From assembly GCF_000007985.2 (NCBI RefSeq), contig NC_002939.5, positions 2,730,001 through 2,762,000 on the forward strand: 32,000 bases of DNA, read 5' to 3'. The first letter of the stretch is position 1; each line of letters opens with the position of its first letter. This DNA is from Geobacter sulfurreducens PCA. GTDB taxonomy: Bacteria; Desulfobacterota; Desulfuromonadia; Geobacterales; Geobacteraceae. The notes under the pieces were generated by a model. It did no database searches. It saw only the letters and a list, made by a program, of their open reading frames with translations, and was not told where the DNA came from. The position numbers and the translations under genes were made by a program. Of the stretch, positions 11,302-31,142 are shown in pieces.

Positions 11302-12207
11302 CTACCTTACCACTCTGAACACCTGGATGCGGTTATTGTTCCGATCGGCGATAACCACGTCGATGTCGTTCTCCTCGCTGATGCAGAGCTGCGACGGATA
11401 GTGGAGGAACGAGTTCTTCCAGCCGATGTTGAGCTGACGGCCCTGGAAGGAGCCGTCCTGGCCGAGGGTGACGACGGCATTGCCGGTCTGGTCGAGGATG
11501 AAGATCTTCCCCTGCTTGTCGGTGGCAATGCTGGTGGGGAACTGGAGATACTCCTTCATCCCGTCGGTCAGGGGCTTGAAGGCGGTTTCGCCGCGGGCGG
11601 CCGCATAGACCCTGGACGCCACGCTGTCAAGGAGAAGCGTGGTCCCGCTGGCGCTGACCGCCAGGTCGGAGATGAAGCGGTACCCCTCGGGGAACGGCAT
11701 CTGCGACTGGAAGGTGCCGGCCGCATCGGTGACGATGACCCGCGCCCCGAAGATATCCAGGATATGGATATTGTCCTTGTCGTCCACGCGGATGCCGCGG
11801 GGGGCGATGGTGGCAGGCGCCGGAACCCCCTTCAGATCCAGGTAGCCGGCAAAGCTCCCCTCGGGCGAGAAGTGGGCGATGCGGCGGAGTTTCCCGTCGA
11901 TGACCAGGATCTCCCCCTTGGAGGTCAGCTGCACCTTGGTGGGGTACGGCACCTGCTCCGCCTTGATCTCGGTGCCGCCGCGCACCGAGCCGTTCTCGAT
12001 GCTGTAGCTCAGCAGCCGTCCGCCGCCGGTGTCGGAAACCACCAGCTGCCTCTTGCCGCAGGCTATCCCCTCGGGGGCCTTCATGGTCCCCCCCTTCTCA
12101 TCGTTGAACTCGGTAGTCAAGTGCTTGAGCTTGATGGCGTCGGCGCCCAGGGCCGGCGATGCGAGCGCTCCTGCAAGGGCAAGCATGGTTATGATCGTTT
12201 TTGCCAT
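11302..12207 (-). CDS. periplasmic/secreted NHL-repeat beta-propeller protein
   Basis: 301 aa with signal peptide MAKTIITMLALAGALASPALGA. It has repeated blades of the type PTSIATDKQGKIFILDQTGNAVVTL and PSQLCISEENDIDVVIADRNNNRIQVF. The SD AGAGGTGA is embedded in the end of the upstream gene. Confidence 0.8.
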   Translation of the reverse strand: MAKTIITMLALAGALASPALGADAIKLKHLTTEFNDEKGGTMKAPEGIACGKRQLVVSDTGGGRLLSYSIENGSVRGGTEIKAEQVPYPTKVQLTSKGEILVIDGKLRRIAHFSPEGSFAGYLDLKGVPAPATIAPRGIRVDDKDNIHILDIFGARVIVTDAAGTFQSQMPFPEGYRFISDLAVSASGTTLLLDSVASRVYAAARGETAFKPLTDGMKEYLQFPTSIATDKQGKIFILDQTGNAVVTLGQDGSFQGRQLNIGWKNSFLHYPSQLCISEENDIDVVIADRNNNRIQVFRVVR

Positions 12208-12211
12208 GGAA

Positions 12212-13493
12212 TCACCTCTTGTACTGTTCGTGGCACTGGACGCAGAGGTCGCTGGTCTTGGGATAGTAGAGCATCTTCTTGAACTCGGTCCCGTGGGCGT
12301 CGTGGCAGCTCACGCACAGGATCGGGATGTTCTTGTTGCGCGGATCCCGGAACTTCTCGCCGATGGGGTGGGTCGAGTGGTGCGCCCAGTCGTGGCAGTC
12401 GGCGCAGAGCTCGATATCCAGCGACTTCTTGGTCAGGAAGAGGTAGTTGGATGAGTGGGGATCGTGGCACGCCGTGCACTGGCCGTTCTTGACCGGCTCG
12501 TGGGTTGACGCGACCTTTTCCTGACGCTTCATGTTGTCCACGTGGCAGCTGTTGCAGAGCACCGCCATGGGCTGGCGCAGGATGCCCTTCTGCTTGCCCG
12601 CGTGGGGGTTGTGGCAGCTGAGGCAGGCCCTGCTTGCTCAGCAGCGGGCCGTGGACCCGGTTCAGGCCGAACGTCGTGTTGACCATGTCGTTATGGCAGC
12701 CGCGGCACAGATCGGTGCCGGTCTTCTTGGTGGCCAGCGGGTTCGGCGAGGTGGCCTCCTCGTGGCACTGGTTGCACATCCGGGTTGCCACCGGCTTGTG
12801 GACCGTGTTGTAGAGGATGCCCGGGTTGTCGGAGCCGTGGGGATCATGGCAGCCGGTGCAGCGGGCATTGGCCACCGGATAGTTCATGTGCTTCTTGGCG
12901 AACATGGGCCGGTCGGTCTTGTGGCAGCCCACGCAGAGCGGGATGATATCGCTCTTCAGCAGGTACGGGTTCTTGGCCGAGGCGTGGGGATCGTGGCAGT
13001 TGAGGCATCCCTGGGCCACGGGCATGTGGCGGTACTTGACCTTGGACAGGGTGGCCCCCATCTCCTTGTGGCACTCGAAGCAGAGCTCGTTCCCGCCCTT
13101 GAGCAGGTTCTCCTTGTTGGGGGCCGAGTGGGGATCGTGGCACTTCATGCAGCTCCCCTCGCCCACCACCTTGTGGACGCTCTTGGCGCCGGAGGGCACC
13201 ACCGTGGTGTGGCAGCGGTAGCAGACCCCGCCGTTATCGGCGGAGAGCAGCTTGCCGTGGGTCGAGGTATGGGGGTTGTGGCAGCCGGTACACTCCCCCT
13301 TCTTCAGGGGGGTGTGCACGAAGGGCTTGGACATCTTCTCCTTGAACGCCGCGTGGCAGTTGAAACAGAGCTTGCCGGTGGCGTCGGGCTTGAGCTTGAA
13401 CTTGAGTGCGTTGTCCTGGGCGAGCGCAAAGGATGCGCCCAGAATGACAAGCACCGCGCAGAACGTGTAAAGATATGTGCGATATGCGTGCAT
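12212..13493 (-). pseudogene. multihaem cytochrome c (16 CXXCH if the frame is restored), split by a 1-nt frameshift at about 12626
   Basis: ATG 13493 (GGAG SD) opens a signal peptide plus 10 CXXCH and reads sensibly up to ...RVHGPLLSKQG. After the extra base at 12626 the +1 frame continues CLSCHNPHAGKQKGILRQPMAVLCNSCH... with 6 more CXXCH to the stop at 12212. The original frame continues as Pro/Arg-rich nonsense to 12189. Confidence 0.7.
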
Positions 13494-13504
13494 GGGAGCT
13501 CCTT

Positions 13505-15487
13505 TTACTGTTTTCCTGTCACGTGGCAATCAGAGCACGAACGCGAAGCGAAGGGTGCGTGCACCATCTTCTTGAAGAACTTCGGGTCCTTGGAACTGTG
13601 CGGATCGTGGCAGTTCATGCAGTTCATCACCGTGGCGGAGATCCCCAGGTGAGCGTCCGCAAACGGCTTACGGTCGTAGGAGTGGCACTGGCCGCACAGG
13701 GCCACGAGCTGTTCGGTAAGCAGCGACGGCTGGCCCGAATTGTGGGGCTTGTGGCAGGTCTGGCAGTCCTGCTCCGCAGGCGTGTGGATCTTCTCGCTGG
13801 CGAACCGCTCCTTGGTCCCCTTGTGGCAGGACACGCAGAGGTCGGTCCCCTGGGCCAGCAGCAGCTTGTTGAGCTTCGCCTTGTGGGGGCTGTGGCACTT
13901 GGTGCAGTCCCCTCCCCGGAACGGGGCATGGGAGCTCTTGGAGGCCTTGTCGCCCTGCTCCAGCGACTTGTGGCAGCCGAAGCACAGCTTCGCCTCGTTG
14001 TCCACGATCATCCCCCGCACGTTGCTGCCGTGGGAATCGTGGCAGGTGAGGCACTGGCCCCCGTTGAACGGCATGTGACTGGAGCCGCCCGACTCGGCCT
14101 TCATCAGGTCCGCGTGGCAGGGTGCGCAGAGCTGCGGCACGGTATTCTTGAGCAGGTTCTTTTCGGCCGAGCCGTGGGCGCCGTGGCACGACACGCAGTC
14201 GGCGTTCATGACCGGCTTGTGGGTGAAGGTCTTCTTGAATTTGGTCTCGGCATCGGTGTGGCAGCCGTAGCAGACCGTATCGGCCCGCTCCTTGAGCATG
14301 GCGGCGAAGTTGGTGCCGTGGGGATCATGGCAGGAGCTGCAGTCGCCGCCGTTGAAGGGCACGTGCTGAACCTTGTTCTTGAGCCCTTCCTTGGTCTTGG
14401 CATGGCACGAGTAGCAGAGATCCGAGCCGGCCAGGGTGAGCAGTCCCTTGTTGGGGGCGGCATGGGGCCGGTGGCAGGAGAGGCATCCCTTCTTGTCGCC
14501 GGTGATGACCTTGTGGGGCACGGCAACGCGCAGGTTCTTGTCCTGGTGGCACCCGAAGCAGAGGTTGTTGCCGTCGGCCGTGAGCAGCTTCGCGAACTCG
14601 GAGGTGTGGGCCCGGTGACAGGAGAGGCAGTCGCCGCTCTTGAACGGCGCGTGCTCGGCCACGCCGCCGGTCCCCTTGAGCATGGCCGCATCGTGGCACT
14701 GGTAGCAGAGTTCGCTCCCCTTCTGGGTCACTCCGAAGGGCTCGGGCCCGCCGGCCGGATTGTGGCAGCCGTCACAGCCGCCCGTGGCAACGGGGTTATG
14801 GGCGCTGGAGCGGAGGAGCTTCTTGCCGGTGGCCGAGTGGGGGTTGTGGCAGATAGTGCAGCGCTTGCTTTCCACCGGATAGCCGCCGTGGGCCTTCTTG
14901 AAGCTGCCGGCGCCGCTGTCGTGGCAGCCGAGACAGATCTTCGGCTCCTTTTCCCTGAGGAGGTTGTCCTCGGTGGAGCTATGGGCCGCGTGGCAGGAGC
15001 CGCAGCCTTTTTTCGTGATGGCGCCGTGGATGGTCCCCTTCTCGTAGTCCTCCTTCTTGTGGCAGCCGTAGCAGGACTCCGGCCCGTCACCCTTCAACAG
15101 GTGCGGGGTGGTGGAGGCGTGGGGGTTGTGGCAGAGGGTACATTTCCCCTGGCGCAGGGGTGTGTGCACCTTGGGCTTGTCCAGGCCGATCTTGTCCCGG
15201 CCGTGACAGTCGAAGCAGAGCTGGTTGCCGTCCTTCTTGAGCAGCAGCTTCGGCACGATGCCGTGGCGCAGGTGACAGTCCTCGCACTTCTGCTCCTTGA
15301 CGATGGTGTGGATGTACTTCATGGAGAGGTACTTGTCATTGAACTTGCCATGACAGTCGACGCATTCCTTGCGGGCGAACTTCTTCGCCGCCAGCGCCGG
15401 GCTCTCCGACAGGTGAAGAATGAGCCCCCCCACCAGGAGGGTCATCACCAGGAATAAGAGTTGTCGTTGTGCATGCACGGTGCGCAT
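13505..15487 (-). CDS. multihaem cytochrome c with 26 CXXCH motifs
   Basis: 660 aa from ATG 15487 with GGAGGAG SD and an N-terminal hydrophobic signal/anchor. I counted 26 CXXCH, arranged as a repeating two-haem unit (LCxxCH ... VHxP..G.CxxCH(N/D)PH ... LL). Confidence 0.9.
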   Translation of the reverse strand: MRTVHAQRQLLFLVMTLLVGGLILHLSESPALAAKKFARKECVDCHGKFNDKYLSMKYIHTIVKEQKCEDCHLRHGIVPKLLLKKDGNQLCFDCHGRDKIGLDKPKVHTPLRQGKCTLCHNPHASTTPHLLKGDGPESCYGCHKKEDYEKGTIHGAITKKGCGSCHAAHSSTEDNLLREKEPKICLGCHDSGAGSFKKAHGGYPVESKRCTICHNPHSATGKKLLRSSAHNPVATGGCDGCHNPAGGPEPFGVTQKGSELCYQCHDAAMLKGTGGVAEHAPFKSGDCLSCHRAHTSEFAKLLTADGNNLCFGCHQDKNLRVAVPHKVITGDKKGCLSCHRPHAAPNKGLLTLAGSDLCYSCHAKTKEGLKNKVQHVPFNGGDCSSCHDPHGTNFAAMLKERADTVCYGCHTDAETKFKKTFTHKPVMNADCVSCHGAHGSAEKNLLKNTVPQLCAPCHADLMKAESGGSSHMPFNGGQCLTCHDSHGSNVRGMIVDNEAKLCFGCHKSLEQGDKASKSSHAPFRGGDCTKCHSPHKAKLNKLLLAQGTDLCVSCHKGTKERFASEKIHTPAEQDCQTCHKPHNSGQPSLLTEQLVALCGQCHSYDRKPFADAHLGISATVMNCMNCHDPHSSKDPKFFKKMVHAPFASRSCSDCHVTGKQ

Positions 15488-15502
15488 AGCTCCTCCAGTC
15501 CG

Positions 15503-17218
15503 TTAAAACTCGGCGAAAATCTTGACGTCGGACGCCTTCCTCAGCTTGTCCGCCCACTCCACGACCAGCTTGTTGAGCTGTTCCGACTGGACGTTCTTCC
15601 TGATTGTGGCCTCGACCTCGGGGAAGGACTGTACCTGTTCGGGGATCACGTTGCGGACCAGGATGACATAGGTGAAGCCGTTGGGGTCCGAATAGACCCG
15701 GTATTCACCGGTCTGGGCCCCGGTGATGACCTTGTTCAGCCCCTCGGGAAGGGTCTTGAGGGTGACCGGCACGTCCTCGAACTGGAGGACCCCGGCGGCC
15801 TTGGCATCCACGTGGCCCTCGGCGTTCTCCTTGAACCATTTGAAATCCATCCCCTGGCGCAGCTTTTCCGCGGCGGACTGGGCCGCGTTCTGGTCATTGA
15901 AGGCAATGCCGTCCAGCACCACCATGATCGGGTAGGAGTACTCGGACTTGTGCGCCTCGTAGTAGGCCTTCAGCTCATCCTCGGTCACCTTCACGTCCGG
16001 GCGGATGACCTTTTCCACGAAATGCCCGAAGATCACGGATTCCTGGTAGTCGGTGACCTTGTCCAGGTATTCCTTTTTCTTGTCGAAGCCCTTGTCGCGG
16101 CCCTCTTTCTCAATGGCCCGGGTGGCCAGGATCTCGAACAGCAGGGAGTCCTTGGCCTTGTTGACCTTCTTCTGGTCAATGGCCATGTCCACCCCGTGGT
16201 AGAACTTCATCCGGATCGCTTCGGCCAGGTCGGCCACGGTCACCGGCTTCTCCCCCTTGATGGTGGCCAGGGGACGCTTGTCCTCCAGGAACTTGAGGAA
16301 CCCTGCCTTGTCCTTCTCGAAATCCAGCGACTTGATCAGTTTCTTGTCCTGCTTGAAATACTTCTCGATCAGCTCGGTCCGGAATTTTTCAAGGGCCTTG
16401 AAGCGGGCCGCGGTGAGCGTTTCCTTCTCCGCCCTGTCCTTCAGTTTCGGATCGTCGGAATGCTTCACGGCATCGAGCCGGAACAGCATGGCCCCCTTCT
16501 GCATGTCGATCACCGGGCCCACGGCGCCGGGCTTCAGCGAATCGATGATCTTCACGATATCGGGGTGGATGTGCTCGTATTTCAGCTTCTCATTCTGCTT
16601 GGCCTCGGCGCGCTTCTCCTTGACCTCCTCGGCCACCAGCGCGTCAAAGGACGTGCCTTTGTCCAGGGCCTTGCGGGCCTTCTTGGCATCTTCCTCGTTC
16701 TTGAACGTGAGGGTGGAGAAGGTCCACTCCACGTTGAGCTGGCCGTAGCGCTTCTCCACCTCCTTGGGGTCGGGCCGGATGTCCTTCACATGATCCTTGA
16801 GCACCAGCTCGCGCAGGAGCTTGCGGGAGAAGGTATCGATCATCTCCTTGGGCTGCTCCTGCTGGTCCAGGCCGATGTTGCGCCCTTCCTGGATGATGAG
16901 CTTGGAGGTGATGATCCGGTTGAGGATATCCGTAAAGTTCCGGCGGGGGGCCTGCTTTCCTTCCGTCATCCCCTCGTGTACCGTTTCAAGGGAGGCGTTC
17001 AGGTCGTTGACGGTGATCGGCTCGTCGTTGACCGTTGCCACGGGGAATTCGGCAAACAGCGGCGAAAACAGGGGCACCTTCACCCTGATCGTCATCACGT
17101 CGGCCGGAGCCGGCGAGGCTTCCACGTTTTCCGGCTTTGCCGGCGAATCGGCAAAGCCCGCCACCGGGGCACCCGCGGCAATGCATGCTACCATCAGCGT
17201 AACCAAAGACTTCTTCAT
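15503..17218 (-). CDS. periplasmic SurA-like chaperone / PpiC (parvulin)-type peptidyl-prolyl isomerase domain protein
   Basis: 571 aa from ATG 17218 (AAGGGGAG SD) with signal peptide MKKSLVTLMVACIAAGAPVAGFA. It has a long Lys/Glu-rich helical chaperone-like region and a C-terminal parvulin-like segment (VVLDGIAF...GMDFKWF...GFTYVILV), in which the usual His residues seem absent by eye. Confidence 0.7.
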   Translation of the reverse strand: MKKSLVTLMVACIAAGAPVAGFADSPAKPENVEASPAPADVMTIRVKVPLFSPLFAEFPVATVNDEPITVNDLNASLETVHEGMTEGKQAPRRNFTDILNRIITSKLIIQEGRNIGLDQQEQPKEMIDTFSRKLLRELVLKDHVKDIRPDPKEVEKRYGQLNVEWTFSTLTFKNEEDAKKARKALDKGTSFDALVAEEVKEKRAEAKQNEKLKYEHIHPDIVKIIDSLKPGAVGPVIDMQKGAMLFRLDAVKHSDDPKLKDRAEKETLTAARFKALEKFRTELIEKYFKQDKKLIKSLDFEKDKAGFLKFLEDKRPLATIKGEKPVTVADLAEAIRMKFYHGVDMAIDQKKVNKAKDSLLFEILATRAIEKEGRDKGFDKKKEYLDKVTDYQESVIFGHFVEKVIRPDVKVTEDELKAYYEAHKSEYSYPIMVVLDGIAFNDQNAAQSAAEKLRQGMDFKWFKENAEGHVDAKAAGVLQFEDVPVTLKTLPEGLNKVITGAQTGEYRVYSDPNGFTYVILVRNVIPEQVQSFPEVEATIRKNVQSEQLNKLVVEWADKLRKASDVKIFAEF

Positions 17219-17249
17219 CAGACTCCCCTTTCTCTGCATTCAGGTTGCG

Positions 17250-17278
17250 GCCGCACCGGGCACTCCGCTCCGGGCGGC
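17250..17278 (-). other. intercistronic GC-rich hairpin without a U-tract
   Basis: GCCGCCCGG pairs with CCGG(T)GCGGC as a 9-bp stem with one bulge, in the only sizeable gap (89 nt) inside the 11-gene block. It may be an RNA processing or stability element. Confidence 0.25.
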
Positions 17279-17307
17279 CATCAGGACGTTTGACACAACG
17301 AATTCCG

Positions 17308-18486: not shown

Positions 18487-19057
18487 CGACCGCTTTCTCA
18501 GTCACATCGTTGAGGGGCCTGCCGCCGCCGCCGAGAAGGCGGTCCGTGAACCCGATCCCCCCCTCCGTGGCCGATGCGGACCAGACGACCCTCCCGGTCT
18601 GGGCCTCCATCACCTGGAGGCTCAGGGAGATAACGTCGGCCATGGACGAGCCCGAGCGGACGTCGCCGTACTCCCGTACCATGCCCGTAATGACCGCGTC
18701 GGCCTTGATCATCTTGGCCAGCTTAACCACTTCCTCGGGGGTGGGGGCAGTGGGGTTCATGACGCCGGCCACCCCCGTCACCCGGCTGACCTCGCCCACG
18801 GGGATGACGTAGAGGGCCCCCGTGGCCAGCAGCTTGGTGTTGAACACGTCCCTGACCCGCTCCGCGGCCTGGGTGTCCTTGGACAGGTTGCCGAAGGGCA
18901 TCACCGCCACGCTCTGGATCGCCCCGAAGTCCATGTTGGGGTCCCGGAAATGCTCCACGTGGGAACAGCCCTGCATCAGCAGGAACGCAAAGAGGCCGAA
19001 GATTCCGCAGAATGCCCGCATCAGGGCGCCGGTGTGGGTGACGAATCGTGATCTCAT
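18458..19057 (-). CDS. lipoprotein, single LpoB/TolB-N/DUF799-like domain
   Basis: 199 aa from ATG 19057 (GGAGAGAGGG SD) with lipobox FLLMQGC. It shows SVAVMPFGNLSKD ... ADAVITGMVREYG ... VISLSLQVMEAQTGRVVWSAS. Confidence 0.7.
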   Translation of the reverse strand: MRSRFVTHTGALMRAFCGIFGLFAFLLMQGCSHVEHFRDPNMDFGAIQSVAVMPFGNLSKDTQAAERVRDVFNTKLLATGALYVIPVGEVSRVTGVAGVMNPTAPTPEEVVKLAKMIKADAVITGMVREYGDVRSGSSMADVISLSLQVMEAQTGRVVWSASATEGGIGFTDRLLGGGGRPLNDVTEKAVDDLISKLFQ

Positions 19058-19079: not shown

Positions 19080-21269
19080 TCAGAACGCGAATCTCAGGGT
19101 GCTGCTGAAGGTGCGCGACTCGGACGACTGGCTGACCGACGTGCTCTTCAGGTACAGATAGGACATATCCAGGTAGGAGCCCCCCCGGATGTTCCAGCGC
19201 ATACTCGGCACGATGGTCCGGTCCTTCTGGTTGGCAGATGAATTGTACGCCTCATTATAGGAAAAACTCAACTGCAGGGCGCCGTCCCGGAACGGAGACC
19301 AGGTTCCGCCGATGTTCCGGGTGGTGACCATGTCCTTGTTCTTTTCCATGATAACGCCGAAGGCCCCGAACAGGTAGACGGAGCGCAGCGGGTTGAAGGC
19401 CGCCGACAGGTCGCCGCGGTGGGTGAAGGTGGAGTTGTCGGGCAAGCCGCCGCCGGTCTGTTCGGTCATGTTGCCGGAATAGCTCGCGTTCACCGTCAGG
19501 GTCGAGTGGGGCAGCAGGGTGAGGCCGAAGGTGACGATGGTGGTATTGGTCTTCTGGCCCGACTCGGCGGTGGCCATGCTGTAGCCCCCGTTCAGGTTCA
19601 CGTCCACCCCTTGGTAGAGGGTGGCGCTGTTGTTGAGGAACAGCGAATTGGTGTCGCTTTTCCTCCCGTCGATCTCCTCGTTGCGGCCGCTGAAGACCAG
19701 GCTGTGGGTCAGCGTGGGGAGCGGGGTGGCCGTCAGCAGGGCACTGTAGATGTAGGAGACGCGGGCGCCCTGATTCTCCTTGGAGTCCTCCCGGGCGAAC
19801 CGGGCGCTGGTCGACAGGTACTGATTGAACCGGTGGCTCGCGGAAAGACCGTTCGACAGGATGTAGCGGGAGGTGGAGAAGAAGTCCGAGTCACTCCGGT
19901 CGTAGTAGTAGCTCAGCTCGTAGTTCAGGTTCGGATTTTCCAGGATCCTCACCCGCATGTTGGTGTCGAGCACGTGGGAGACCTGGCTCGTGGTGCGTCG
20001 CTGGACATCCTCGAACTGGACGAACCCTTCCAGCTCGGTCACCTGGATGTCGGTCAGGTTCGCGGTGGGGTTCACCAGCGAAACGGTGCCCAGGGGCAGG
20101 GGCGAGGTAACGACCTTCAGGTACCGGGAGGTGGCGCCGGAAAAGCCCAGCTCGTAGAACCAGCCGGTGCCCGCCTCGTTGCTCCTGAACGGTGCCGAGG
20201 GCAGGAGCTGCACCAGGGTCCAGTTCAGGTTGTCGCTGCTGGTGTAGATCGTCCAGGAGAACCGGTTCTCGATGTCCGAGGGGAGGTCCGTGTTGAGCCA
20301 GACGCGGATGCGGTTCACGGTCACCGCGCCGCCGAAGTCGAAGCCCAGGTTCCGGGGCCTGATGTCGCCCCCCACCGGCTGGATGCCGATGGTGACGTTG
20401 CTCCCCGTGTTCAGGTTCCCGTCCACCAGCGCCGGGTTGGCGGCCAGGGTGACCAGCAGGGGCGTATCGGTCAGGGCCGACAGGCCGGCCGTGGGAAAGA
20501 GCCGGAACAGGGCACTGTTGGTCTCCTGGGACGAGATGTTGTAGTTGGCGTAGAGGGTGACCCGGTCCTGCCAGAACTGGTCGTTGTAGGTCACCCGGCC
20601 GGTGTGGGTCAGGACCGTGGTGTTGTTCCGGGTCAGGTTGTCCGTGGCATCGGTATAGAGCCCCTGGTAGTTCAGCTCCACCTGCTCCACCGGCTTATAG
20701 CGGGAACCCAGGTTGTACGAATTGAGCACCACATCCTGGAACTGCCGGTCGGCATCGTAGGAATTGGTCCGCGTATAGAGGAACTCCAGGGAGGGGAGCC
20801 CCTCGGGTCTGAGGCTCAGCTTGGCGTTGTAGTTCTCGTGGATGATGTTGGACGAGGCGATCCCCTCGGTATCGGAAATCTCCTGGCGCCGGTTGTAGCC
20901 CAGTCCCGCGGAATAGAGGGGGGTGCCCAGGGTCAGGTCCAGGAAGGGGCTCACCTTCAGCAGGGTGGTATCGAGCTGGTTGTCGTTCAACTCCGCACGG
21001 GTCATGGTGTAGTCGACAGTGCCGCCGCCCGTGAAGCGCAGGGTCGGGTAGAGCATCCGGTCCAGGGACAGGTTGTAGCGCTGTAGGATCGAGCTGCTCT
21101 TGGTGGTCGTGGTCACATTGCCGGCATCCGTCGATTGGTTGTCGGAATTGACGTAGCTCAGCTCCAGGAACCCCCGCAGCCCCTCGGCCCCCGCCGTGGC
21201 CGGCAGCAGCGCGGCCGCGAGGGCCGCTGCTGCCATGAACCCGTGGAGTATCCGCATCCCGTTGCCCAC
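19080..21269 (-). CDS. large outer-membrane beta-barrel protein with an inserted discoidin (F5/8 type C)-like domain
   Basis: 729 aa from GTG 21269 (or ATG 21257) with signal peptide ...LLPATAGA. It has alternating-hydrophobicity strands rich in Y/N/S/T and the C-terminal OMP signature ...STLRFAF. Residues ~255-415 (nt 20025-20507) read LVDGNLNTGSNV...NLGFDFGGAVTVNRIRVW...WTIYTSSDNLNWTLV...SRYLKVV. Confidence 0.75.
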   Translation of the reverse strand: MGNGMRILHGFMAAAALAAALLPATAGAEGLRGFLELSYVNSDNQSTDAGNVTTTTKSSSILQRYNLSLDRMLYPTLRFTGGGTVDYTMTRAELNDNQLDTTLLKVSPFLDLTLGTPLYSAGLGYNRRQEISDTEGIASSNIIHENYNAKLSLRPEGLPSLEFLYTRTNSYDADRQFQDVVLNSYNLGSRYKPVEQVELNYQGLYTDATDNLTRNNTTVLTHTGRVTYNDQFWQDRVTLYANYNISSQETNSALFRLFPTAGLSALTDTPLLVTLAANPALVDGNLNTGSNVTIGIQPVGGDIRPRNLGFDFGGAVTVNRIRVWLNTDLPSDIENRFSWTIYTSSDNLNWTLVQLLPSAPFRSNEAGTGWFYELGFSGATSRYLKVVTSPLPLGTVSLVNPTANLTDIQVTELEGFVQFEDVQRRTTSQVSHVLDTNMRVRILENPNLNYELSYYYDRSDSDFFSTSRYILSNGLSASHRFNQYLSTSARFAREDSKENQGARVSYIYSALLTATPLPTLTHSLVFSGRNEEIDGRKSDTNSLFLNNSATLYQGVDVNLNGGYSMATAESGQKTNTTIVTFGLTLLPHSTLTVNASYSGNMTEQTGGGLPDNSTFTHRGDLSAAFNPLRSVYLFGAFGVIMEKNKDMVTTRNIGGTWSPFRDGALQLSFSYNEAYNSSANQKDRTIVPSMRWNIRGGSYLDMSYLYLKSTSVSQSSESRTFSSTLRFAF

Positions 21270-21272: not shown

Positions 21273-22721
21273 TTACCTTTCGCCCGCCACGACCACGCGG
21301 CAGGGCTCGTCGCCCACGTCGATCTGCGCCACCTCCCGCTTGCCCACCAGGCCGATGAACTGCAGCCGCTTCACGCCGGAGAGGAGGGCCAGGAGATTGT
21401 TGTGCTCGCCGTCGATGGTCAGGTACGAGGGACTGCCGCCGCCGGAGATGAAATTGCCCGGCAGGAGCGAAAAGGGGTCGAAGACGTCGATCACGGTGTC
21501 GCTCCGCTTGGCGATGTAGATCTGGTCGGTGGACGTGTCGATCTTGATCGTCCGCGCCCCCATCCCCACGTAAACCCGCTTGGCGACGAGCCTGTTGGTA
21601 AGATCGATATCGACCAGGTAGGGGGAAAGCTCGTGGATGACCAGCAGCCGGTCGCCCCGCCGGTTCAGCTGCGCCCAGAGGGGCGAGGTTTCGGTAGGCA
21701 GCGTGGCGACCACGGCGCGCCGCGCGATGTCCACCACCGACACCGAGTTGGACAGGGTATTGAGCACGTAGGCCGTGCGTCCCAGCCGGTCCACGATCAC
21801 GGCGCCGGGCCTGCTCCCCACGATGACCCGGGCCAGTTCCGACTGGGAGGCCGGGTCCACGAAGCTGAGCGTATTGGAGCCGTTGTTGGCCACCAGCAGG
21901 GTCCTGCCGTCGGGGGTCAGGGCCAGTTCGACCGGGCCGTCGCCGATGCTGAGCCGGATGCGGGTCAGGGAATAGTCGGCCATCAGGTCGATGACCTCGA
22001 TGGCGTCGTCGCCCGACAGGGCCACGTAGGCCCGGCGCGCCGCCTGATCGAAGACGATGCCGGCCGGCGCCCGCCCGGTCTCGATGAACTCCGTGACCCG
22101 GGCCTCCCGCTTGTCGAACACCGCGATGGTGTTGGCCCCCTTGTTGGTGACGAAGCCCGTGAGTCCCCACAGGGGCCGCCCGGGGATCTCGGCCTTGAAG
22201 ACCGGCGAGAAGCTGAAGCGCTTGCTGACCGATGCATCTTCATCCAGCGTGAGGGAGATGAGGATACCCTTCTGGGGTTCCACCACGAAGGGGAAGTCGA
22301 TCATGACCGGCTTCTCGGGGGGCAGCAGGGCCATTCGCCCCTCGTCGGTCTTGGTGCCCGCCCCCGAGATCCGGAACGACAGGCCGCTGTAGCGCCCCCC
22401 CGGCAGGATCGCCGACCCCAGCATCCGCTGCCACTTCATGGTGGCGGGGCTCGCCTCGGTCAGCCTGAGGGAGAGGGGTATCTCCGTGCCGTCGCTCTTG
22501 ATCGCCGAAACCCCCGCCACGGTGAAGTCGAGCCGGCCGGCGTCCCGGGGGAAAGGCTCCAGGTAGAGGAACAGTTCCCCCTCGGCGAACAGCTGGGGCT
22601 TGGTGACGACAACGGGCGCGTGGCAGCCGCTGCACGTCAGCGCGGCGAGCACGGCGACCCACAGAACGATGAGGAGGGCAGCCCCGCGGGACGTCATGCG
22701 CTTGGGAGAATTCTCGTTCAT
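21273..22721 (-). CDS. YVTN-family beta-propeller protein with N-terminal signal/anchor and a single CXXCH
   Basis: 482 aa from ATG 22721 (GGGGAG SD; the track start 22769 would overlap the upstream gene). It has repeated ~40-aa units of the type GSRPGAVIVDRLGRTAYVLNTLSNSVSVVD. The N-terminus is ...LAALTCSGCHAPV. Confidence 0.75.
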   Translation of the reverse strand: MNENSPKRMTSRGAALLIVLWVAVLAALTCSGCHAPVVVTKPQLFAEGELFLYLEPFPRDAGRLDFTVAGVSAIKSDGTEIPLSLRLTEASPATMKWQRMLGSAILPGGRYSGLSFRISGAGTKTDEGRMALLPPEKPVMIDFPFVVEPQKGILISLTLDEDASVSKRFSFSPVFKAEIPGRPLWGLTGFVTNKGANTIAVFDKREARVTEFIETGRAPAGIVFDQAARRAYVALSGDDAIEVIDLMADYSLTRIRLSIGDGPVELALTPDGRTLLVANNGSNTLSFVDPASQSELARVIVGSRPGAVIVDRLGRTAYVLNTLSNSVSVVDIARRAVVATLPTETSPLWAQLNRRGDRLLVIHELSPYLVDIDLTNRLVAKRVYVGMGARTIKIDTSTDQIYIAKRSDTVIDVFDPFSLLPGNFISGGGSPSYLTIDGEHNNLLALLSGVKRLQFIGLVGKREVAQIDVGDEPCRVVVAGER

Positions 22722-22747: not shown

Positions 22748-24061
22748 TCATGGCACGGACGTGTGGCATTTGGTGCAGAGCGTCGACTGCTCCGGCGAGA
22801 AGAGCGACGCGGGCCGGTCATAGTACGCCCTGAGGGCTTCCATCTCGCTGCGCCCCTGGCCGTAGGGCTGGTAGGCCTCCCCTTCCTGTGAATACTTGCC
22901 GTTGTAGACCACGTAGGGCGTCTTGGTGTTCCAGCGGGTGGCGCTGTCCCAGCCGCCGGCGTGGGCCCGGTGGCAGGTGAGGCACATGACGCGGGGGGTG
23001 CCGTCCGCGGTGCTGGGCCCCTTGGTGGGGGTGGCCGTCACGATATTCCTCAGCAGGGTGTAGTTGTTGGTTCCCGCCTCGAAGGGGACCAGCGACAGCC
23101 AGGAGGTGGCCTCCACGCCGGACAGGTCCCCGGTCTTGATGTACCGGTTGTAGTAATCCACCATGGCGCCGCCCAGGGGGGCCTCGGTGCCGGCCGGGTG
23201 CACCAGCCCTCCCCCGCTGCCGTCCCGGTGGATGTTCGGGTGACAGTTCCGGCACCACTCGGACATCCCCTGGCCGTAGGCCACGCGGGTCGCGGTGGTG
23301 CTTTCGCTCCGGTTGTAGTCGGCCGGGGCCACCGCCGCCGGGGGTCCGTTGATGAAGGAAAAGGCCGGTCCCAGCGACTTGGGGTAATAGCCGTTCCCCC
23401 CCAGGAGCCGGTAGGCGCCCACGGCCATGGCGGCATCGGGCTCGACGCCGGTGGCGTAGCTCCCCGAGCCCCGGATCGGCTTGCCCGTGACCGCAATGGA
23501 GCCGTCCTGGTCGCGGCGGTAGCGGCCGTGGGGGTCGTGGCAGGCGACGCAGGACAGGCCCGCCGCCGGATAGCTGCCGCCGGGGGCCGTCAGGTGGAGG
23601 GCATCCTGGAGATAGCCGTAGTCCCCCGCCACCACGTTATGGCCGTGCCGGTCCCCCTCGCTGCTCGAAAGCGTCGAGCCAAAGGCCGGAATCCAGGTGT
23701 AGGATTTCCTGAGCCAGCCGAAATCGCCGCCGGGCCCCAGCTGCTTGGGCGGGACCCCGAACGGCATCTCGAACCCCGGCGTGCTCACGTGATAGGAGGT
23801 GGGGCCCACATCCCCCGCCTTCTCGTGACAGTTCAGGCAGGTGGAGCTGGAATCGCCCCCCTTCAGGAGATAGCGGTTGCCCATGCCCACGGGGCGGCCG
23901 TTGGTGGCCACCGCGAAGCCCCCTTCCGAGTTGTGCATGGTGTGACACCCTTCGCACTCGCCCGCGCCCCCTTCGTGAAAGGCGAGGGAACGGCCTGTGG
24001 TGGCCGGCAGCAGTACCGGCAGCACGACCAGGAGCGCAAGTATGGCCTTGGGTGCTTTCAC
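22748..24061 (-). CDS. OmcS-family hexahaem cytochrome c, third paralogue
   Basis: 437 aa. Its GTG start overlaps the upstream stop (GTGA, 24058-24061), with AAGGAA SD. Signal peptide ...GRSLA then FHEGGAGECEGCHTMHNS. Six CXXCH are collinear with OmcS/OmcT, and blocks GPGGDFGWLRKSYTW, VGAYRLLGG, TRVAYGQGMSEWC.NCH and CLTCHRAHAGGWDS are shared. Confidence 0.9.
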   Translation of the reverse strand: MKAPKAILALLVVLPVLLPATTGRSLAFHEGGAGECEGCHTMHNSEGGFAVATNGRPVGMGNRYLLKGGDSSSTCLNCHEKAGDVGPTSYHVSTPGFEMPFGVPPKQLGPGGDFGWLRKSYTWIPAFGSTLSSSEGDRHGHNVVAGDYGYLQDALHLTAPGGSYPAAGLSCVACHDPHGRYRRDQDGSIAVTGKPIRGSGSYATGVEPDAAMAVGAYRLLGGNGYYPKSLGPAFSFINGPPAAVAPADYNRSESTTATRVAYGQGMSEWCRNCHPNIHRDGSGGGLVHPAGTEAPLGGAMVDYYNRYIKTGDLSGVEATSWLSLVPFEAGTNNYTLLRNIVTATPTKGPSTADGTPRVMCLTCHRAHAGGWDSATRWNTKTPYVVYNGKYSQEGEAYQPYGQGRSEMEALRAYYDRPASLFSPEQSTLCTKCHTSVP

Positions 24062-27111: not shown

Positions 27112-27187
27112 GGCACGCTCAAACCCCTCGACCGGACAGGCGCCGGAAACCGAGGGGTGTTTCACCGGATAGTGGATCGATTGCTGG

Positions 27188-27227
27188 AAAAAAGGCGGCC
27201 ACGACCGGCCGGAGGCCGGCCGTGACC
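27188..27227 (-). terminator. strong rho-independent terminator immediately after omcT
   Basis: The minus strand reads GGUCACGGCCGG-CCUCCGG-CCGGUCGUGGCC (12-14 bp stem including 2 G-U pairs), then GCC and U6. It starts 20 nt after the omcT stop. Confidence 0.8.
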
Positions 27228-27247
27228 AGAACTACATGACATATGAA

Positions 27248-28540
27248 TCAGTCTTTGGCATGACACTTGTTGCACAGGACCCGTTGATACGGGGCGAAGT
27301 TGGTGGGGGGTCTTCCATAGTACGCCTGCTGCGTTTCGGCAACGGTCCGTCCCTGGGCCTGGGCTGCGTTGGTGACCGGGTCGGGCCACACGGGGTTGCC
27401 TGACGCATCGGCCACGGTCATGAACTCGTTGCCGAGGCCGTACCGCATCATGCTGTCAAAGCCGGATGCGTGGGCGCGGTGGCAGGAGAGGCACATGACC
27501 CGGTCCGTGGAGATGGGGCCGGCAGTTGACGTGGTCTGGGCCTTGAGCGCGTTCAGGTCGTGGGTGTTGTCGCTCTGGAACGGCACCAGCGAGGTGAACG
27601 CCGTATCCACGGCGCCCGTCAGGTTGCCCGACTTCTTGTACGAGTTGTAGATCTGGGCCACGAAGGGGCCAAGGTTCTGATCGGCCGGGTGAACCAGGGT
27701 GCCGAAGGTGGTGTGCATCTGCCCGTGGCAGTTGGCGCACCAGAGGGACATGCTCCGGCCGTAGGCGACCCGCGTGTCGCTGGTGGCTTCCGAGCGGTTG
27801 TAGCTGTTGGGGGCCACGGCGTAGGGGGCCGCGAACATGAAGGCATCGCCGCCGCTCAGGGACTTGGGCTTGTACCCGGCACCGCCCAGGAGGCGATAAA
27901 CGCCGACGGCAGTGGTGGCATCGGGAACAGCGCCGTAGGAGCCGGAGCTCCTGATCGGCTTGCCGGTCTTGGCCTGGACGCCCAGTGAGGTGATCCGGTA
28001 GGTGCCGTGGGGGTCATGGCAGCTGATGCAGCTGAACTGGTTGGCCGGGAAGGGGGTGTTCATGCTCCCCGGGGCCGCGGTGATGGTGCTGTCGGCCACG
28101 TAGTTGTAATCGGCGGCCACGATGTTGTGGCCCTTGCGCTCGCCGTGGCTCCACTCCGTGGCGGCACCGGCGCGCGGCACCCAGCTGTAGGTCTTCTTGA
28201 GCCAGCCGAAATCGCCGCCCGGCGTGAGCTGGAGCGGCGGAGAGCCGGCGGGCATGTCGGCTTCTGCGGTACTGATGTGGTAGCTGCTGGGCCCCGTGTC
28301 ACCGGCATGCTGGTGACAGTTGAGGCACGACGAGCTCTGGTCCGTCCCCTGGAGCAGATAAGGGCCGGTGGTGAACTGGGCAGTAGCGTTGTTCATCTGC
28401 TGGCCGCCCAGGGAGTTGTGCATGGTGTGGCATCCCTCGCACTCTGCCACGCCACCTGAGTGGAAAGCCCATCCCGTGCCGGTTGCGCCGAGAACCAGGA
28501 GCGCCGCTGCTGTGACGGGAAGAGTCTTGAAGCGTTTCAT
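27248..28540 (-). CDS. omcT: hexahaem c-type cytochrome OmcT (OmcS paralogue)
   Basis: 430 aa with AGGAGG SD 6 nt upstream. Signal peptide ...GTGWA then FHSGGVAECEGCHTMHNS, and six CXXCH. It is roughly 88% identical to OmcS over the first ~95 mature residues by my hand count (84/95). Confidence 0.9.
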   Translation of the reverse strand: MKRFKTLPVTAAALLVLGATGTGWAFHSGGVAECEGCHTMHNSLGGQQMNNATAQFTTGPYLLQGTDQSSSCLNCHQHAGDTGPSSYHISTAEADMPAGSPPLQLTPGGDFGWLKKTYSWVPRAGAATEWSHGERKGHNIVAADYNYVADSTITAAPGSMNTPFPANQFSCISCHDPHGTYRITSLGVQAKTGKPIRSSGSYGAVPDATTAVGVYRLLGGAGYKPKSLSGGDAFMFAAPYAVAPNSYNRSEATSDTRVAYGRSMSLWCANCHGQMHTTFGTLVHPADQNLGPFVAQIYNSYKKSGNLTGAVDTAFTSLVPFQSDNTHDLNALKAQTTSTAGPISTDRVMCLSCHRAHASGFDSMMRYGLGNEFMTVADASGNPVWPDPVTNAAQAQGRTVAETQQAYYGRPPTNFAPYQRVLCNKCHAKD

Positions 28541-28590
28541 AAAATACCTCCTGGCGATCTGTGTCGGACTCCGGTTGGCGGTAAGGAGGT

Positions 28591-28620
28591 GCCGGGGCCC
28601 CCTTTCAGGCGGACCCCGGC
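28591..28620 (-). other. GC-rich hairpin in the omcS-omcT intergenic spacer (no U-tract)
   Basis: The minus strand reads GCCGGGGUCC-GCCUGAAAG-GGGGCCCCGGC, about a 10-bp stem, 30 nt after the omcS stop and followed by the omcT SD. It is a candidate partial attenuator or 3'-end stabiliser. Confidence 0.35.
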
Positions 28621-28650
28621 GGAATCACACAACATCAGATTGTGGCAAGA

Positions 28651-29949
28651 TTAGTCCTTGGCGTGGCACTTGTTGCAGAGAGCGCGCTGGTAAGGAGCAA
28701 ACTTGTCAGCAGTACGGCCATAGTAGGCAGCGGTCATCTCGTTGACCGAACGGCCCTGGAGGGACGAGGTATTGGGGTCCGTACCATAGATCGAGTTGCC
28801 GGAAGCATCGGCGATGGTCGTGAACTCGTATGCCAGGTTGAAGCGGGTCATGCTGTCGAAGCCCGAAGCGTGAGCGCGGTGGCAGGAGAGGCAGTTCACG
28901 TTGCTGGTGGCGTCGGCGCCGGTCAGCGCGGTGTCGTCGATCTTGGCGTGACCCTTGAGCACGGTGTAGTCGGCAGTGCCTTCCTCGAACGGAGCAAGGG
29001 ACAGGTAGGCGGAAGCCTGGGTACCGGTCAGGTCGCCGGACTTCTTGTAGGAGTTGTACAGACCGGCGATGGTAGCACCGAACTTGGCGCCGTTGCCGGC
29101 CGGGTGACGCAGGTTGGTCGGGTACGCGCTGTTGTGGATGTCGGTGTGGCAGTTGGCGCACCACTCGGACATGCCCTGGCCGTAGGCAACGCGGGTCTGA
29201 GTCGTAGCTTCCGTCCGGTTGTAGGTGGACGGAGCAACGGCGGCCGGTACCTGGTTGGCGAAGGCATAGGAACCGCTCAGGGACTTGGGCTGGTAGCCGG
29301 TGCCGCCCAGGATGCGGTATGCACCAACGGCGCCCCACGCGGTGGGATCGTTGCTGTTCTGGTAGGAACCGCTGTTCTTGATGGGGAGACCGGTGGTGGC
29401 GATGCTGCCGTCAACAAAACGACGATACTTCCCGTGGGGATCGTGGCAGCTGGAGCAGTGAAGCTGGTTGGCCGGATAGGTACCGCCCGGGGCCGTGGTC
29501 AGGGTGGTGTCGGCAACATAGTTGTAGTCGCCGGCAACGATGTTGTGGCCTTTGCGCTCGCCTTCGCTCGTGTTGAGACCACGAACGTTCCAGGTGTAGG
29601 TCTTCTTCACCCAGCCGAAGTCGCCGCCCGGGGTCATCTGGAGCGGAGCGGTACCGGCAGGCATATCAGCTTCAGCGGTGGAGATGTGGTAGCTGGAAGG
29701 ACCGGTGTCACCGGCGTGCTGGTGGCAGTTCAGACAGGACGAGCTCTGGGTGGCGCCCTGGAGCAGCATGGGGCCGGTGGTGAACTGGGCAGTGGCGCTG
29801 TTCATGACTGCGCCGCCCAGCGAGTTGTGCATCGTGTGGCACCCTTCGCACTCGGCAACGCCGCCGGAGTGGAAAGCGAACGCCGCGGGGGCGCTCATGA
29901 GAAGTGCTGCTGCTGCCACGGAAAGACTTACTTTCATCCCCTTTTTCAT
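28651..29949 (-). CDS. omcS: hexahaem c-type cytochrome OmcS (nanowire-forming subunit)
   Basis: 432 aa from ATG 29949 (GGAGG 5 nt upstream; the track ORF extends a further 50 codons upstream). Signal peptide MKKGMKVSLSVAAAALLMSAPAAFA then FHSGGVAECEGCHTMHNSLGGAVMNSATAQ..., and six CXXCH. I recognise the sequence from memory as G. sulfurreducens OmcS. Confidence 0.95.
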   Translation of the reverse strand: MKKGMKVSLSVAAAALLMSAPAAFAFHSGGVAECEGCHTMHNSLGGAVMNSATAQFTTGPMLLQGATQSSSCLNCHQHAGDTGPSSYHISTAEADMPAGTAPLQMTPGGDFGWVKKTYTWNVRGLNTSEGERKGHNIVAGDYNYVADTTLTTAPGGTYPANQLHCSSCHDPHGKYRRFVDGSIATTGLPIKNSGSYQNSNDPTAWGAVGAYRILGGTGYQPKSLSGSYAFANQVPAAVAPSTYNRTEATTQTRVAYGQGMSEWCANCHTDIHNSAYPTNLRHPAGNGAKFGATIAGLYNSYKKSGDLTGTQASAYLSLAPFEEGTADYTVLKGHAKIDDTALTGADATSNVNCLSCHRAHASGFDSMTRFNLAYEFTTIADASGNSIYGTDPNTSSLQGRSVNEMTAAYYGRTADKFAPYQRALCNKCHAKD

Positions 29950-29950
29950 C

Positions 29951-30060
29951 ATTTCCTCCATTTTGGTTGGTTTCTCCGGCAACCCGGCCGTCCCGCTCCA
30001 GCGGCACCCGTCGGCTTTGTGTCCCCACCTTGCGATGGGTTTACTCTTTTCGGAGGAAAT
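29951..30060 (-). promoter_or_regulatory. GEMM-I (c-di-GMP-I / cGAMP class) riboswitch-like leader with an anti-SD/SD pairing
   Basis: The minus strand 30046->29974 reads GAGUAAAC-CCAUC-GCAA-GGUGG-GGACACAAAGCC-GACGGG...GGCCGGGUUGCCGGAG. This is collinear with the GEMM-I core CAAAC-stem-GNRA-stem-GGACGCAAAGCC ... GCGGGGUUACC as I remember it from Vc2. AUUUCCUCC (30060-30052) is the perfect complement of the omcS SD GGAGGAAAU (29959-29951). Confidence 0.6.
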
Positions 30061-30194
30061 TTGGTTTCGCCTTTCGGCTCGTGAGTGTTGTGCCTGCAAT
30101 GCAATACAAAATGGTCTTCAGTGCATCCCCAGCGTTTTGTGGTCCCTCCACCTCCCCTCCAAGGCGGGATGCCGGCCTGAGTTACGACTCGCGA

Positions 30195-31142
30195 TCAGTC
30201 GTGCGTTACCTTGAATACGCTTACTCCGCGATTGCCGAGCTGACCCACGTAAAGCTTCCCCTCGGCATCGATTGCCAGGTCGTCGGGGCCCACCAGACTG
30301 CCGGGGGCGTCACCGCGACCGCCGAACTCGTAGATGAACTTGAACTGCCGGTCGAACACCAGGATCGCGCATCTGAGCTTGTCGGAGATGTAGTAGTTGC
30401 CCAGGCCGTCAACCGCGATCCCCGTGGGGACTCCGAACTTGCCCGGCGCGCTGCCCCGCTTGCCGAAGGATTCAACCGTGCCGTTCGCCGAGATCCTGAA
30501 CACCTTACCGGTGACCGGCGAGGTAAAGAGCACGCTGCCGTCCGAATCGAAGGCCACTGCGCCGATGCCCGTGTTGAGGCGGTCTTCCTCGGTTACGCTC
30601 GATGCTTCGGCCAGATCGATATGCTTGACGTAGTTCCCTTCCGGATCGAGCATCACGACCATCATGGAACCCAGGCTCACCAGGCAGATCTTGCCGTCCC
30701 TCAGCATGAGCCGGTTCGGCTTGAACGCGGCCAGTTTCTCGGGCAGCCCCTTGAACTCGATGGGCTTGATGGGTTCCGCCCGGTAGTTGCAGAGGAGCAG
30801 GCTGGGCGTGCCGTTGTTGTAGGCCAGGACCAGGATCCGACCCTGCTCGTCGATGGCGGCGTCGTACACGATCCCGGACTCCATGGTGTTGGTGAACCGG
30901 TAGACTTCCATGCCGCTGTTGTTGAATACCTTGACCGTCTCGCCCGAGATCACATAGGTCTCGCGTGCCGTCGCATCAAGGGCGATCTTGGCCAGGCTGT
31001 ACGGAATCGTGCCCGTGAAGTCCGAGAGGTTATACAGATACGCAACCTTGAATTCACCCGTGCTCGCATTGGTGGGTCCACCCATGAGAACGGCGGCGAG
31101 GATGGCCAGCGGTGCTACACGCCGGTTGCCGATTTGTCTCAT
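30195..31142 (-). CDS. NHL-repeat beta-propeller protein (secreted/periplasmic)
   Basis: 315 aa from ATG 31142; the track start 31178 is a TTG. It has a signal-like RRVAPLAILAAVLMGG and NHL blades VPTGIAVDGLGNYYISDKLRCAILVFD and GPDDLAIDAEGKLYVGQLGNRGVSVFKV. Confidence 0.8.
   Translation of the reverse strand: MRQIGNRRVAPLAILAAVLMGGPTNASTGEFKVAYLYNLSDFTGTIPYSLAKIALDATARETYVISGETVKVFNNSGMEVYRFTNTMESGIVYDAAIDEQGRILVLAYNNGTPSLLLCNYRAEPIKPIEFKGLPEKLAAFKPNRLMLRDGKICLVSLGSMMVVMLDPEGNYVKHIDLAEASSVTEEDRLNTGIGAVAFDSDGSVLFTSPVTGKVFRISANGTVESFGKRGSAPGKFGVPTGIAVDGLGNYYISDKLRCAILVFDRQFKFIYEFGGRGDAPGSLVGPDDLAIDAEGKLYVGQLGNRGVSVFKVTHD

Follow-up and report, generated by a model that had tools for sequence, protein, structure and literature searches.

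The omcS-omcT locus of Geobacter sulfurreducens and its osc companion genes: a probable biogenesis system for OmcS-family haem filaments that includes PelC-family lipoproteins

Introduction

A question central to extracellular electron transfer and to protein nanowire engineering is by what route a folded six-haem protein gets across the outer membrane and assembles into a polymeric conductor of micrometre length. This question is raised directly by a 32,000-nucleotide stretch of the Geobacter sulfurreducens PCA genome (NC_002939.5, positions 2,730,001 to 2,762,000; hereafter referred to as the window, with positions counted from its first letter), which carries omcS within a long block of cytochrome and envelope genes. 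The OmcS encoded in the window matches that of PDB entries 6EF8 and 6NEF, both filament structures from cryo-EM, at every one of its 407 mature residues (100% identity), and the block is the G. sulfurreducens omcS-omcT locus together with the osc (omcS-companion) genes, GSU2505-GSU2493. An initial annotation of the window, made from the letters and their open reading frames (ORFs), proposed a dedicated system for the folding, export and assembly of cytochrome filaments, and added that no mechanistic test of such a system was known.

The osc system is in fact already known, having been identified, named and genetically dissected in 2025: Shen et al. (Cell Chem Biol 32:239) are reported to have named the cluster osc and to have tested it genetically. 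Deletion, interaction and overexpression tests had been published, and the second statement does not hold. According to the summary of Shen et al. 2025 in PMC13194489, OscH acts in folding, OscE, OscF and OscG in secretion and OscD in filament morphology. Roles for the operon are also summarised in bioRxiv 10.1101/2025.11.06.686851, and a porin-mounted filament model is cited in bioRxiv 10.1101/2025.10.22.684050. The names oscC (GSU2501), oscI (GSU2495) and oscJ (GSU2494) are taken from PMC13194489; the letters OscA (GSU2505-type NHL protein), OscB (SpeE-like protein) and OscK (GSU2493-type NHL protein) were deduced from the consecutive lettering. ORF and domain assignments recovered the osc gene set and order in the window (omcT, the SpeE-like gene, oscC, oscD, oscEFG, oscH, oscI and oscJ), in agreement with the published names. 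The locus is the same, with no biological difference, the window copy carrying an extra C that frameshifts oscJ.

The osc cluster is probably dedicated to the biogenesis of OmcS-family haem filaments; this central idea of the initial annotation matches both the published Osc roles and the conserved linkage described below. As the system itself has already been characterised experimentally, the residual interest lies in its structural mechanism, in a link to the polysaccharide-export lipoprotein PelC and in the broken oscJ of the window sequence. The present analysis provides an independent replication of the cross-phylum synteny, in which an invariant core is defined as opposed to movable parts, a PelC homology of OscF and OscG that yields a concrete structural hypothesis, and the oscJ frameshift in the window sequence.

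Conservation of the osc gene order across phyla

The OscE barrel protein was used as the sole probe. A profile built from a 13-sequence alignment was searched against one genome per species (185,579 species) and returned 37 loci, which include no G. sulfurreducens or other Geobacter; Geotalea was added by exact-protein look-up. Most of the loci belong to Nitrospirota/Thermodesulfovibrionia, the others coming from Thermodesulfobacteriota, Acidobacteriota, Syntrophorhabdales, Desulfobacterales, and Zixibacteria and Delongbacteria metagenome-assembled genomes (MAGs). BLASTP comparison of the window proteins with all ORFs of the 37 loci (hereafter designated by L numbers, as are the additional loci and contigs) identified a recurring order: NHL protein, one to three hexahaems, propeller, barrel, lipoproteins F and G, peptidyl-prolyl isomerase (PPIase), 26-haem cytochrome, 16-haem cytochrome and NHL protein.

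Presence was counted only over loci with enough flank to decide. A hexahaem stood beside the OscE homologue in 25/25 loci, and homologues of the upstream NHL protein (A), lipoprotein F and lipoprotein G were present in 21/21, 35/35 and 30/30 loci, respectively; the propeller (D) was missing from one locus of 30. The PPIase (H) was found in 22 of 29 loci, the 26-haem cytochrome (I) in 19 of 26, the 16-haem cytochrome (J) in 17 of 25 and the downstream NHL protein (K) in 14 of 24. The invariant core consists of the NHL protein, hexahaem, propeller, barrel and two PelC-like lipoproteins, and the movable parts are the PPIase/26-haem/16-haem/NHL module and the SpeE-like protein. The full osc set is present in Geotalea uraniireducens. 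The A-type NHL gene is upstream in most loci; in L012, L015 and L023 it follows the K-type NHL gene. In L007, L009, L011 and L028 the PPIase/26-haem/16-haem module has the reverse orientation and stands upstream of the NHL gene, the 16-haem gene being within reach only in L007 and L028; in L032 the 26-haem and NHL genes had no more than weak matches, on the opposite strand. Co-occurrence with OmcS-family hexahaems, which the initial annotation had proposed as a check on its hypothesis, was therefore found for the accessory genes, with the counts given above.

Geobacter genomes are crowded with cytochrome genes, and the SpeE-like family is large (more than 3,447 matches) and often unlinked to osc genes, as would be expected if the block brought together by chance unrelated envelope and cytochrome genes sharing a strand. 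However, a gene order conserved across phyla in 37 loci found via the barrel protein alone refutes this explanation. In addition, the osc genes overlap or nearly abut, and genetic phenotypes have been published (PMC13194489). The probability that we attach to a chance assembly is negligible.

The identity of the filament served by the conserved machine was also considered. A cytochrome related to OmcS is present in only 12 of 33 Geobacter genomes, and a GSU2501-type hexahaem in 12 of the 12 Geobacter genomes with the eight-gene block GSU2500-GSU2493, not all of which have omcS (bioRxiv 10.1101/2025.11.06.686851). In the window, translation of oscC is coupled to that of the accessory genes, and omcS-omcT lie upstream of a strong terminator. 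These observations would fit a machine that primarily builds or serves a GSU2501 (OscC)-type hexahaem filament. Nevertheless, the hexahaem adjoining the propeller in the distant loci has OmcS/OmcT as its best match with about the same frequency as OscC, filament formation has so far been shown for OmcS only, and best-BLAST assignment among such paralogues is unreliable, as stressed in the same preprint (bioRxiv 10.1101/2025.11.06.686851). We consider a machine devoted mainly to OscC to be very unlikely.

The 37 matches obtained by word-indexed protein search might have indicated a tiny OscE family, a reading rejected as a sensitivity artefact: an exhaustive hidden Markov model (HMM) search of 1.84 billion representatives identified 972 representative OscE-family clusters (E≤1e-30). 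One MAG (GCA_040960975.1) contains two separate osc-type clusters (L041 and L043).

The SpeE-like membrane protein is best regarded as an optional component of variable position, rather than as a core part. It was found in one of the 17 loci with enough upstream flank, and a recheck of the loci that extend about 2 kb past the last NHL gene detected no SpeE-like gene there. The window and L042 have the gene between omcT and oscC; it follows the last NHL gene in Geotalea, precedes the first one in L006 and stands divergently beside the second osc-type cluster in L043. Four close homologues were sampled, two of them linked to osc genes and two, about 50% identical, unlinked (L044 and L045), and a threshold of E≤1e-20 gives a family of more than 3,447 members. 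The NCBIfam model for the fused major facilitator superfamily (MFS)/spermidine synthase (NF037959) matched with 159 bits, against a cut-off of 40, and the SpeE equivalog models remained far below their cut-offs (91.7 bits for TIGR00417, against 249.55). The polytopic SpeE-like protein first described is thus present, whereas its role as a core inner-membrane platform is at odds with its frequency, its varied positions and its unlinked homologues.

The outer-membrane barrel and its periplasmic partners

An AlphaFold2 (AF2) model of OscE, based on a 34-sequence alignment, had a mean predicted local distance difference test score (pLDDT) of 89.5. Eleven long strands precede a beta-sandwich insert (about residues 250-415), and about seventeen strands follow it, giving a barrel of about 28 strands. 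Strand parity would place the insert in an extracellular loop. OscE had no Pfam match of its own, including to tetratricopeptide repeats (TPR), and none in NCBIfam, its comparison with F5/8 type C reaching only E 0.084. Among 34 family members, 17 matched F5_F8_type_C_2 and 13 matched F5_F8_type_C (best E about 1e-5), and UniRef names the family after F5/8 type C. The outer-membrane barrel with a discoidin-like insert that had been predicted from the translation is consistent with the modelled barrel and with these matches of its relatives. Foldseek comparison with the PDB matched OscE to large barrels of a generic kind only (TonB-dependent receptors, FimD/PapC ushers and MtrB), with template modelling scores (TM-scores) of no more than 0.38.

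The AF2 model of OscG (pLDDT 85, predicted TM-score 0.82) contains two tandem alpha/beta domains. Its best Foldseek matches were PelC structures (5T10, 5T11, the G. metallireducens entry 5T0Z and the PelBC complex 9H80), with E values down to 4e-9 and target-normalised TM-scores of 0.69-0.81, and PelC outranked GNA1162, TolB-N, LpoB, FlgT and CsgG. Sequence comparisons gave the same relationship, with E 8e-7 for the OscG profile against PelC and E 3e-6 for OscF against PelC chain 9h80_C (phmmer). OscF shares 31% identity with the C-terminal domain of OscG, and lipobox-like motifs are present in both proteins (LAAGC in OscG, MQGC in OscF). OscF and OscG are PelC-family lipoproteins, with three PelC-like domains in total. 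The three LpoB/TolB-N-like lipoprotein domains initially described were thus correctly recognised, and can now be specified as PelC-family domains, one in OscF and one in each half of OscG. CsgG-like, TolB-like and LpoB-like readings of the two proteins were rejected, the PelC match being clearly better in the OscG Foldseek search. No link between PelC and OscF/OscG was found in the searchable literature, which did not cover Shen et al. 2025.

Several Nitrospirota loci contain giant OscG-matching ORFs (1,190-1,469 aa) with 8-11 Calx-beta domains (L014 13117-21025 and L033 12735-17141; also L020, L021 and L031), and in some loci a second giant Calx-beta ORF lies 3' of the OscG match. The domain content of these ORFs suggests that the lipoprotein module may be extended there at the surface, in the manner of an adhesin.

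OscH is a parvulin-type PPIase, in keeping with the periplasmic chaperone first proposed, but its likeness to SurA is weak: SurA_N, SurA_N_2 and SurA_N_3 scored 17-20 bits, below their cut-offs of 27-31, and the closest NCBIfam models were generic PPIases and EpsD, all below cut-off.

Multihaem cytochromes and the oscJ frameshift

Domain calls and motif counts gave three OmcS-family hexahaems and a 26-CXXCH protein, as in the initial annotation. The haem counts of the osc cytochromes are conserved at 6, 26 and 16: 26 CXXCH motifs were present in 19 of 20 distant OscI homologues, and 15 of 16 distant OscJ homologues are single ORFs with 16.

The window sequence differs at this last gene. It was aligned from 9079 to 31257 with L001, a public NCBI MAG contig of G. 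sulfurreducens type (DPAK01000006.1), and the 22,179-column alignment contains a single base difference, an extra C at window position 12626 (GGGCC, versus GGGC in L001) that shifts the oscJ frame. As written, oscJ is split into a 10-CXXCH ORF (13493-12189), ending at 12189 in an out-of-frame tail rich in Pro, Arg and Gly, and a 5-CXXCH ORF (12568-12212). Removal of the base restores a 426-aa protein with 16 CXXCH. A 16-haem cytochrome and a total of 60 CXXCH, both claimed at the outset, are therefore obtained once the C at 12626 is removed, and not from the sequence as it stands. The extra base lies at nucleotides 867-868 of the oscJ coding sequence, and thus matches the frameshift listed in a comparison of PCA with KN400/LT ('GSU2494 oscJ: frameshift at position 868'; PMC13194489). 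Programmed frameshifting was rejected, given the otherwise identical L001 without the extra base and the 15 of 16 homologues that are single 16-haem ORFs. The sequence comparisons identify the extra base as a reference error or a mutation private to the sequenced stock.

A further CXXCH, missed in the initial tally, occurs in the YVTN propeller protein OscD. This motif (CSGCH, 22632-22646) lies at the lipobox-like end of the signal peptide, at residue 46 of the 498-aa ORF translation (start 22769) and residue 30 of the called 482-aa protein. None of 29 distant OscD homologues has a CXXCH, so that haem attachment to OscD looks lineage-specific.

Comparison with known export systems and proposed mechanism

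In the PelBC system, a dodecameric ring of the lipoprotein PelC lies under the PelB porin. OscF and both OscG domains share the PelC fold, with detectable sequence homology, and the lipoprotein genes adjoin the outer-membrane barrel gene in osc as they do for PelC and PelB. The cargo of PelBC is a polysaccharide, whereas that of osc is a folded haem protein. PelB is a smaller barrel fused to TPR repeats, whereas OscE has about 28 strands, a discoidin-like insert and no TPR match. Domain scans of the osc block detected neither a PelB-type TPR barrel nor glycosyltransferase genes.

The PelC homology of OscF and OscG, together with the approximately 28-strand OscE barrel, suggests a PelBC-like porin-plus-ring exporter, with a putative ring-under-barrel architecture. 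Sec-exported, haem-loaded hexahaem subunits would be held in the periplasm by the OscH parvulin chaperone, which would hand them, folded, to a PelBC-like outer-membrane complex. The latter would comprise a periplasmic ring of PelC-like domains, contributed by OscF and the two OscG domains, under the wide OscE barrel, through which the subunit or growing filament would pass and in which it would stay mounted. OscI (26 haems) and OscJ (16 haems) could serve as periplasmic wires feeding electrons to the filament base, and the propellers (OscD and the NHL proteins) might control polymerisation or bundling. More specifically, we tentatively raise the possibility that OscE, OscF and OscG form a previously unclassified outer-membrane exporter of protein filaments on the PelBC plan, in which a surface-facing, discoidin-like insert grips or gates the filament and OscI and OscJ dock at the ring to charge its base. 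Four OscF and four OscG, for example, would supply twelve PelC-like domains. If true, this scheme would connect the secretion of folded cytochromes with an architecture known from polysaccharide export.

The proposed scheme shares its logic with chaperone-usher systems, in which folded subunits, brought by a periplasmic chaperone, reach a large single-chain barrel where a non-covalent polymer grows and remains mounted. FimD and PapC were among the structural matches of OscE, but with TM-scores of 0.18-0.32, and neither Foldseek nor Pfam revealed an usher plug or an usher N- or C-terminal domain in OscE. The chaperone PapD has an Ig fold, whereas OscH is a parvulin PPIase. Polymerisation is by donor-strand exchange in chaperone-usher systems, and would use haem-histidine coordination, as is established for OmcS, in the osc system. 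Curli CsgG and OscG fall within one broad group of lipoprotein folds (TolB-N, LpoB, CsgG), and the Geotalea OscF homologue bears a faint Pfam CsgG mark, but CsgG came further down the OscG match list, with a target-normalised TM-score of about 0.4 and a root-mean-square deviation of 9-12 Å, and osc has a separate large barrel, OscE.

Several points weigh against a dedicated filament-biogenesis system of this kind. The mechanism of OmcS secretion and anchoring was described as 'still speculative' in a 2025 review (PMC12307469), according to which extracellular OmcS depends also on PilA-N, and the experimental roles of the Osc proteins reach us second-hand, through citing papers. No ATPase or other energy source is encoded in the osc block, and, with the PilA-N dependence (PMC12307469), this makes it doubtful that the system is self-contained, as had been proposed. 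In the Desulfobacterales-type loci L027, L029 and L035, no H-I-J-K module was detected within reach. The broken oscJ implies that, if the extra base is real, the 16-haem wire is not essential in this strain, and the 16-haem 'electron feed' of the initial annotation has no intact gene in the window sequence. Finally, OscE is without a close solved relative, its best TM-score among the top-ranked matches listed being that to MtrB.

This last match raises the question of a porin-cytochrome conduit. The Mtr/Pcc systems (MtrAB-C, 6R2Q) and osc both combine a large barrel with periplasmic multihaem cytochromes and an extracellular cytochrome. OscE could accordingly be an Mtr/Pcc-like sheath around a cytochrome (OscC, or part of OscI/OscJ) that would only charge surface OmcS, the OmcS itself leaving the cell via a PilA-N pseudopilus. 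Such a conduit would be consistent with the ranking of MtrB (6r2q_B), with the two very large periplasmic multihaem cytochromes of strictly conserved haem count that accompany the barrel in most loci, with the hexahaem gene near the barrel in every decidable locus, and with the dependence of OmcS export on PilA-N (PMC12307469). However, the TM-scores of OscE and MtrB are only 0.35 and 0.38, and osc has no decahaem or octahaem MtrA/OmaB homologue, containing 26- and 16-haem proteins instead. It adds a dedicated PPIase chaperone and PelC-family ring lipoproteins, which are typical of export machines, as well as propellers, and some loci keep A, the hexahaem, D, E, F and G without I and J nearby. 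The published osc phenotype is a secretion defect, and OscE, OscF and OscG are assigned to secretion (PMC13194489). The conduit accounts less well than an exporter for the chaperone, the PelC-like parts and the published secretion phenotype, and we consider it rather unlikely, although the two may be compatible and could be combined. The initial statement that osc is distinct from Mtr/Pcc conduits has to be qualified by the ranking of MtrB, weak as the match is.

Riboswitch and regulation of omcS-omcT

The omcS leader contains a GEMM-I riboswitch aptamer, which the initial parts list had overlooked. The match to Rfam RF01051 is full-length (model positions 1-87, from 30055 to 29975), with 57.1 bits against a gathering threshold of 35 (E 8e-9), and the aptamer ends 26 nt 5' of the omcS start at 29949, on the same strand. 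The folding energy of the whole leader gave no signal beyond shuffled controls (z -0.39), so that the call stands on the Rfam model. At unpaired model position 11 the window has an A, versus G in the consensus; an A at this position is presumably the signature of the cGAMP-sensing GEMM-Ib subclass. The OmcST riboswitch is a known element with a reported response to both cGAMP and cyclic di-GMP (c-di-GMP; PMC6456294). The omcS-omcT unit may be regulated separately, via the GEMM-I riboswitch, and would end at its own terminator.

A convergent sensor histidine kinase gene (about 8465-10954, plus strand; dCache_1, PAS, HAMP, HisKA and HATPase_c domains; 830 aa in the L001 call) faces the end of the osc block and is a possible local regulator.

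Organisation of the gene block

A six-frame ORF listing and the gene calls on L001 agree that the minus strand carries every plausible gene between 31142 and 11302, as first described. The independent gene calls on L001 gave the same thirteen genes (Table 1, mapped onto the window). The first of these is an NHL gene, so that omcS is not at the head of the block, and ten genes, rather than the eleven initially counted, follow the omcT terminator; eleven accessory genes are obtained only if the upstream NHL gene is included. The domain calls confirmed one YVTN/YncE propeller and two NHL proteins.

Table 1. Features of the omcS-omcT/osc block, in order of transcription (window coordinates; aa, amino acids)
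Feature	Position	Strand	Basis or remark
NHL/6-bladed propeller protein, GSU2505-type	30195..31142	-	Pfam NHL and DUF5128; 315 aa on L001
GEMM-I (c-di-GMP-I family) riboswitch aptamer, omcS leader	29975..30055	-	Rfam RF01051
omcS (GSU2504), hexahaem nanowire subunit, 432-aa precursor	28651..29949	-	six CXXCH; identity to 6EF8/6NEF
omcT, hexahaem OmcS paralogue	27248..28540	-	six CXXCH; Paired_CXXCH match
Terminator-like hairpin (intrinsic) 3' of omcT	27196..27228	-	15-bp stem, 11 GC pairs, then TTTTTT
Fused polytopic membrane/spermidine-synthase-like protein, GSU2502-type, 1017 aa	24058..27111	-	Pfam Spermine_synth 1.6e-23; NCBIfam MFS_SpdSyn
oscC (GSU2501), third OmcS-family hexahaem	22748..24061	-	six CXXCH; name from PMC13194489
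OscD, YVTN/YncE beta-propeller with N-terminal CXXCH	21273..22721	-	Pfam YNCE 3.5e-13; TIGR02276
OscE, outer-membrane beta-barrel, 725 aa, discoidin-like insert	19080..21257	-	AF2 model
OscF, one-domain PelC/GNA1162/LpoB-fold lipoprotein, 199 aa	18458..19057	-	Pfam GNA1162-like 3e-9, LpoB 2e-5
OscG, lipoprotein with two tandem PelC-like domains, 392 aa	17308..18486	-	AF2 model; Foldseek
OscH, periplasmic parvulin-type PPIase chaperone	15503..17218	-	Pfam Rotamase_2 1e-35
oscI (GSU2495), 26-haem c-type cytochrome	13505..15445	-	26 CXXCH
oscJ (GSU2494), 16-haem c-type cytochrome gene, frameshifted here	12212..13493	-	CXXCH count after base removal
NHL-repeat propeller protein, GSU2493-type	11302..12207	-	Pfam NHL 8e-14
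Terminator-like hairpin (intrinsic) closing the block	11221..11243	-	9-bp stem, 7 GC pairs, then ATTTTTTTT

The junctions 3' of omcT, as given by the gene calls, are -4, +26, +15, +22, -29, +89, +57, +11 and +4 nt. They reproduce the range of spacings reported at the outset, together with the GTGA at 24058-24061, in which the stop codon of the SpeE-like gene overlaps the oscC start, and the 4-nt gap at 12208-12211 between oscJ and the last NHL gene. The tight spacing and the two overlaps suggest that oscB to oscK are co-translated. A consensus scan recovered a hairpin followed by a T-run at both of the sites initially proposed as terminators, 3' of omcT and at the end of the block.

Judged from their translations only, the genes in window 312-8465, upstream of the histidine kinase gene, appear unrelated to osc. 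They include a carbamate-kinase-like gene (1628-2629, minus strand), a TatD/radical-SAM-like fusion (3877-5334, plus strand) and two MFS-type transporters (5705-7072 and 7203-8465, plus strand).

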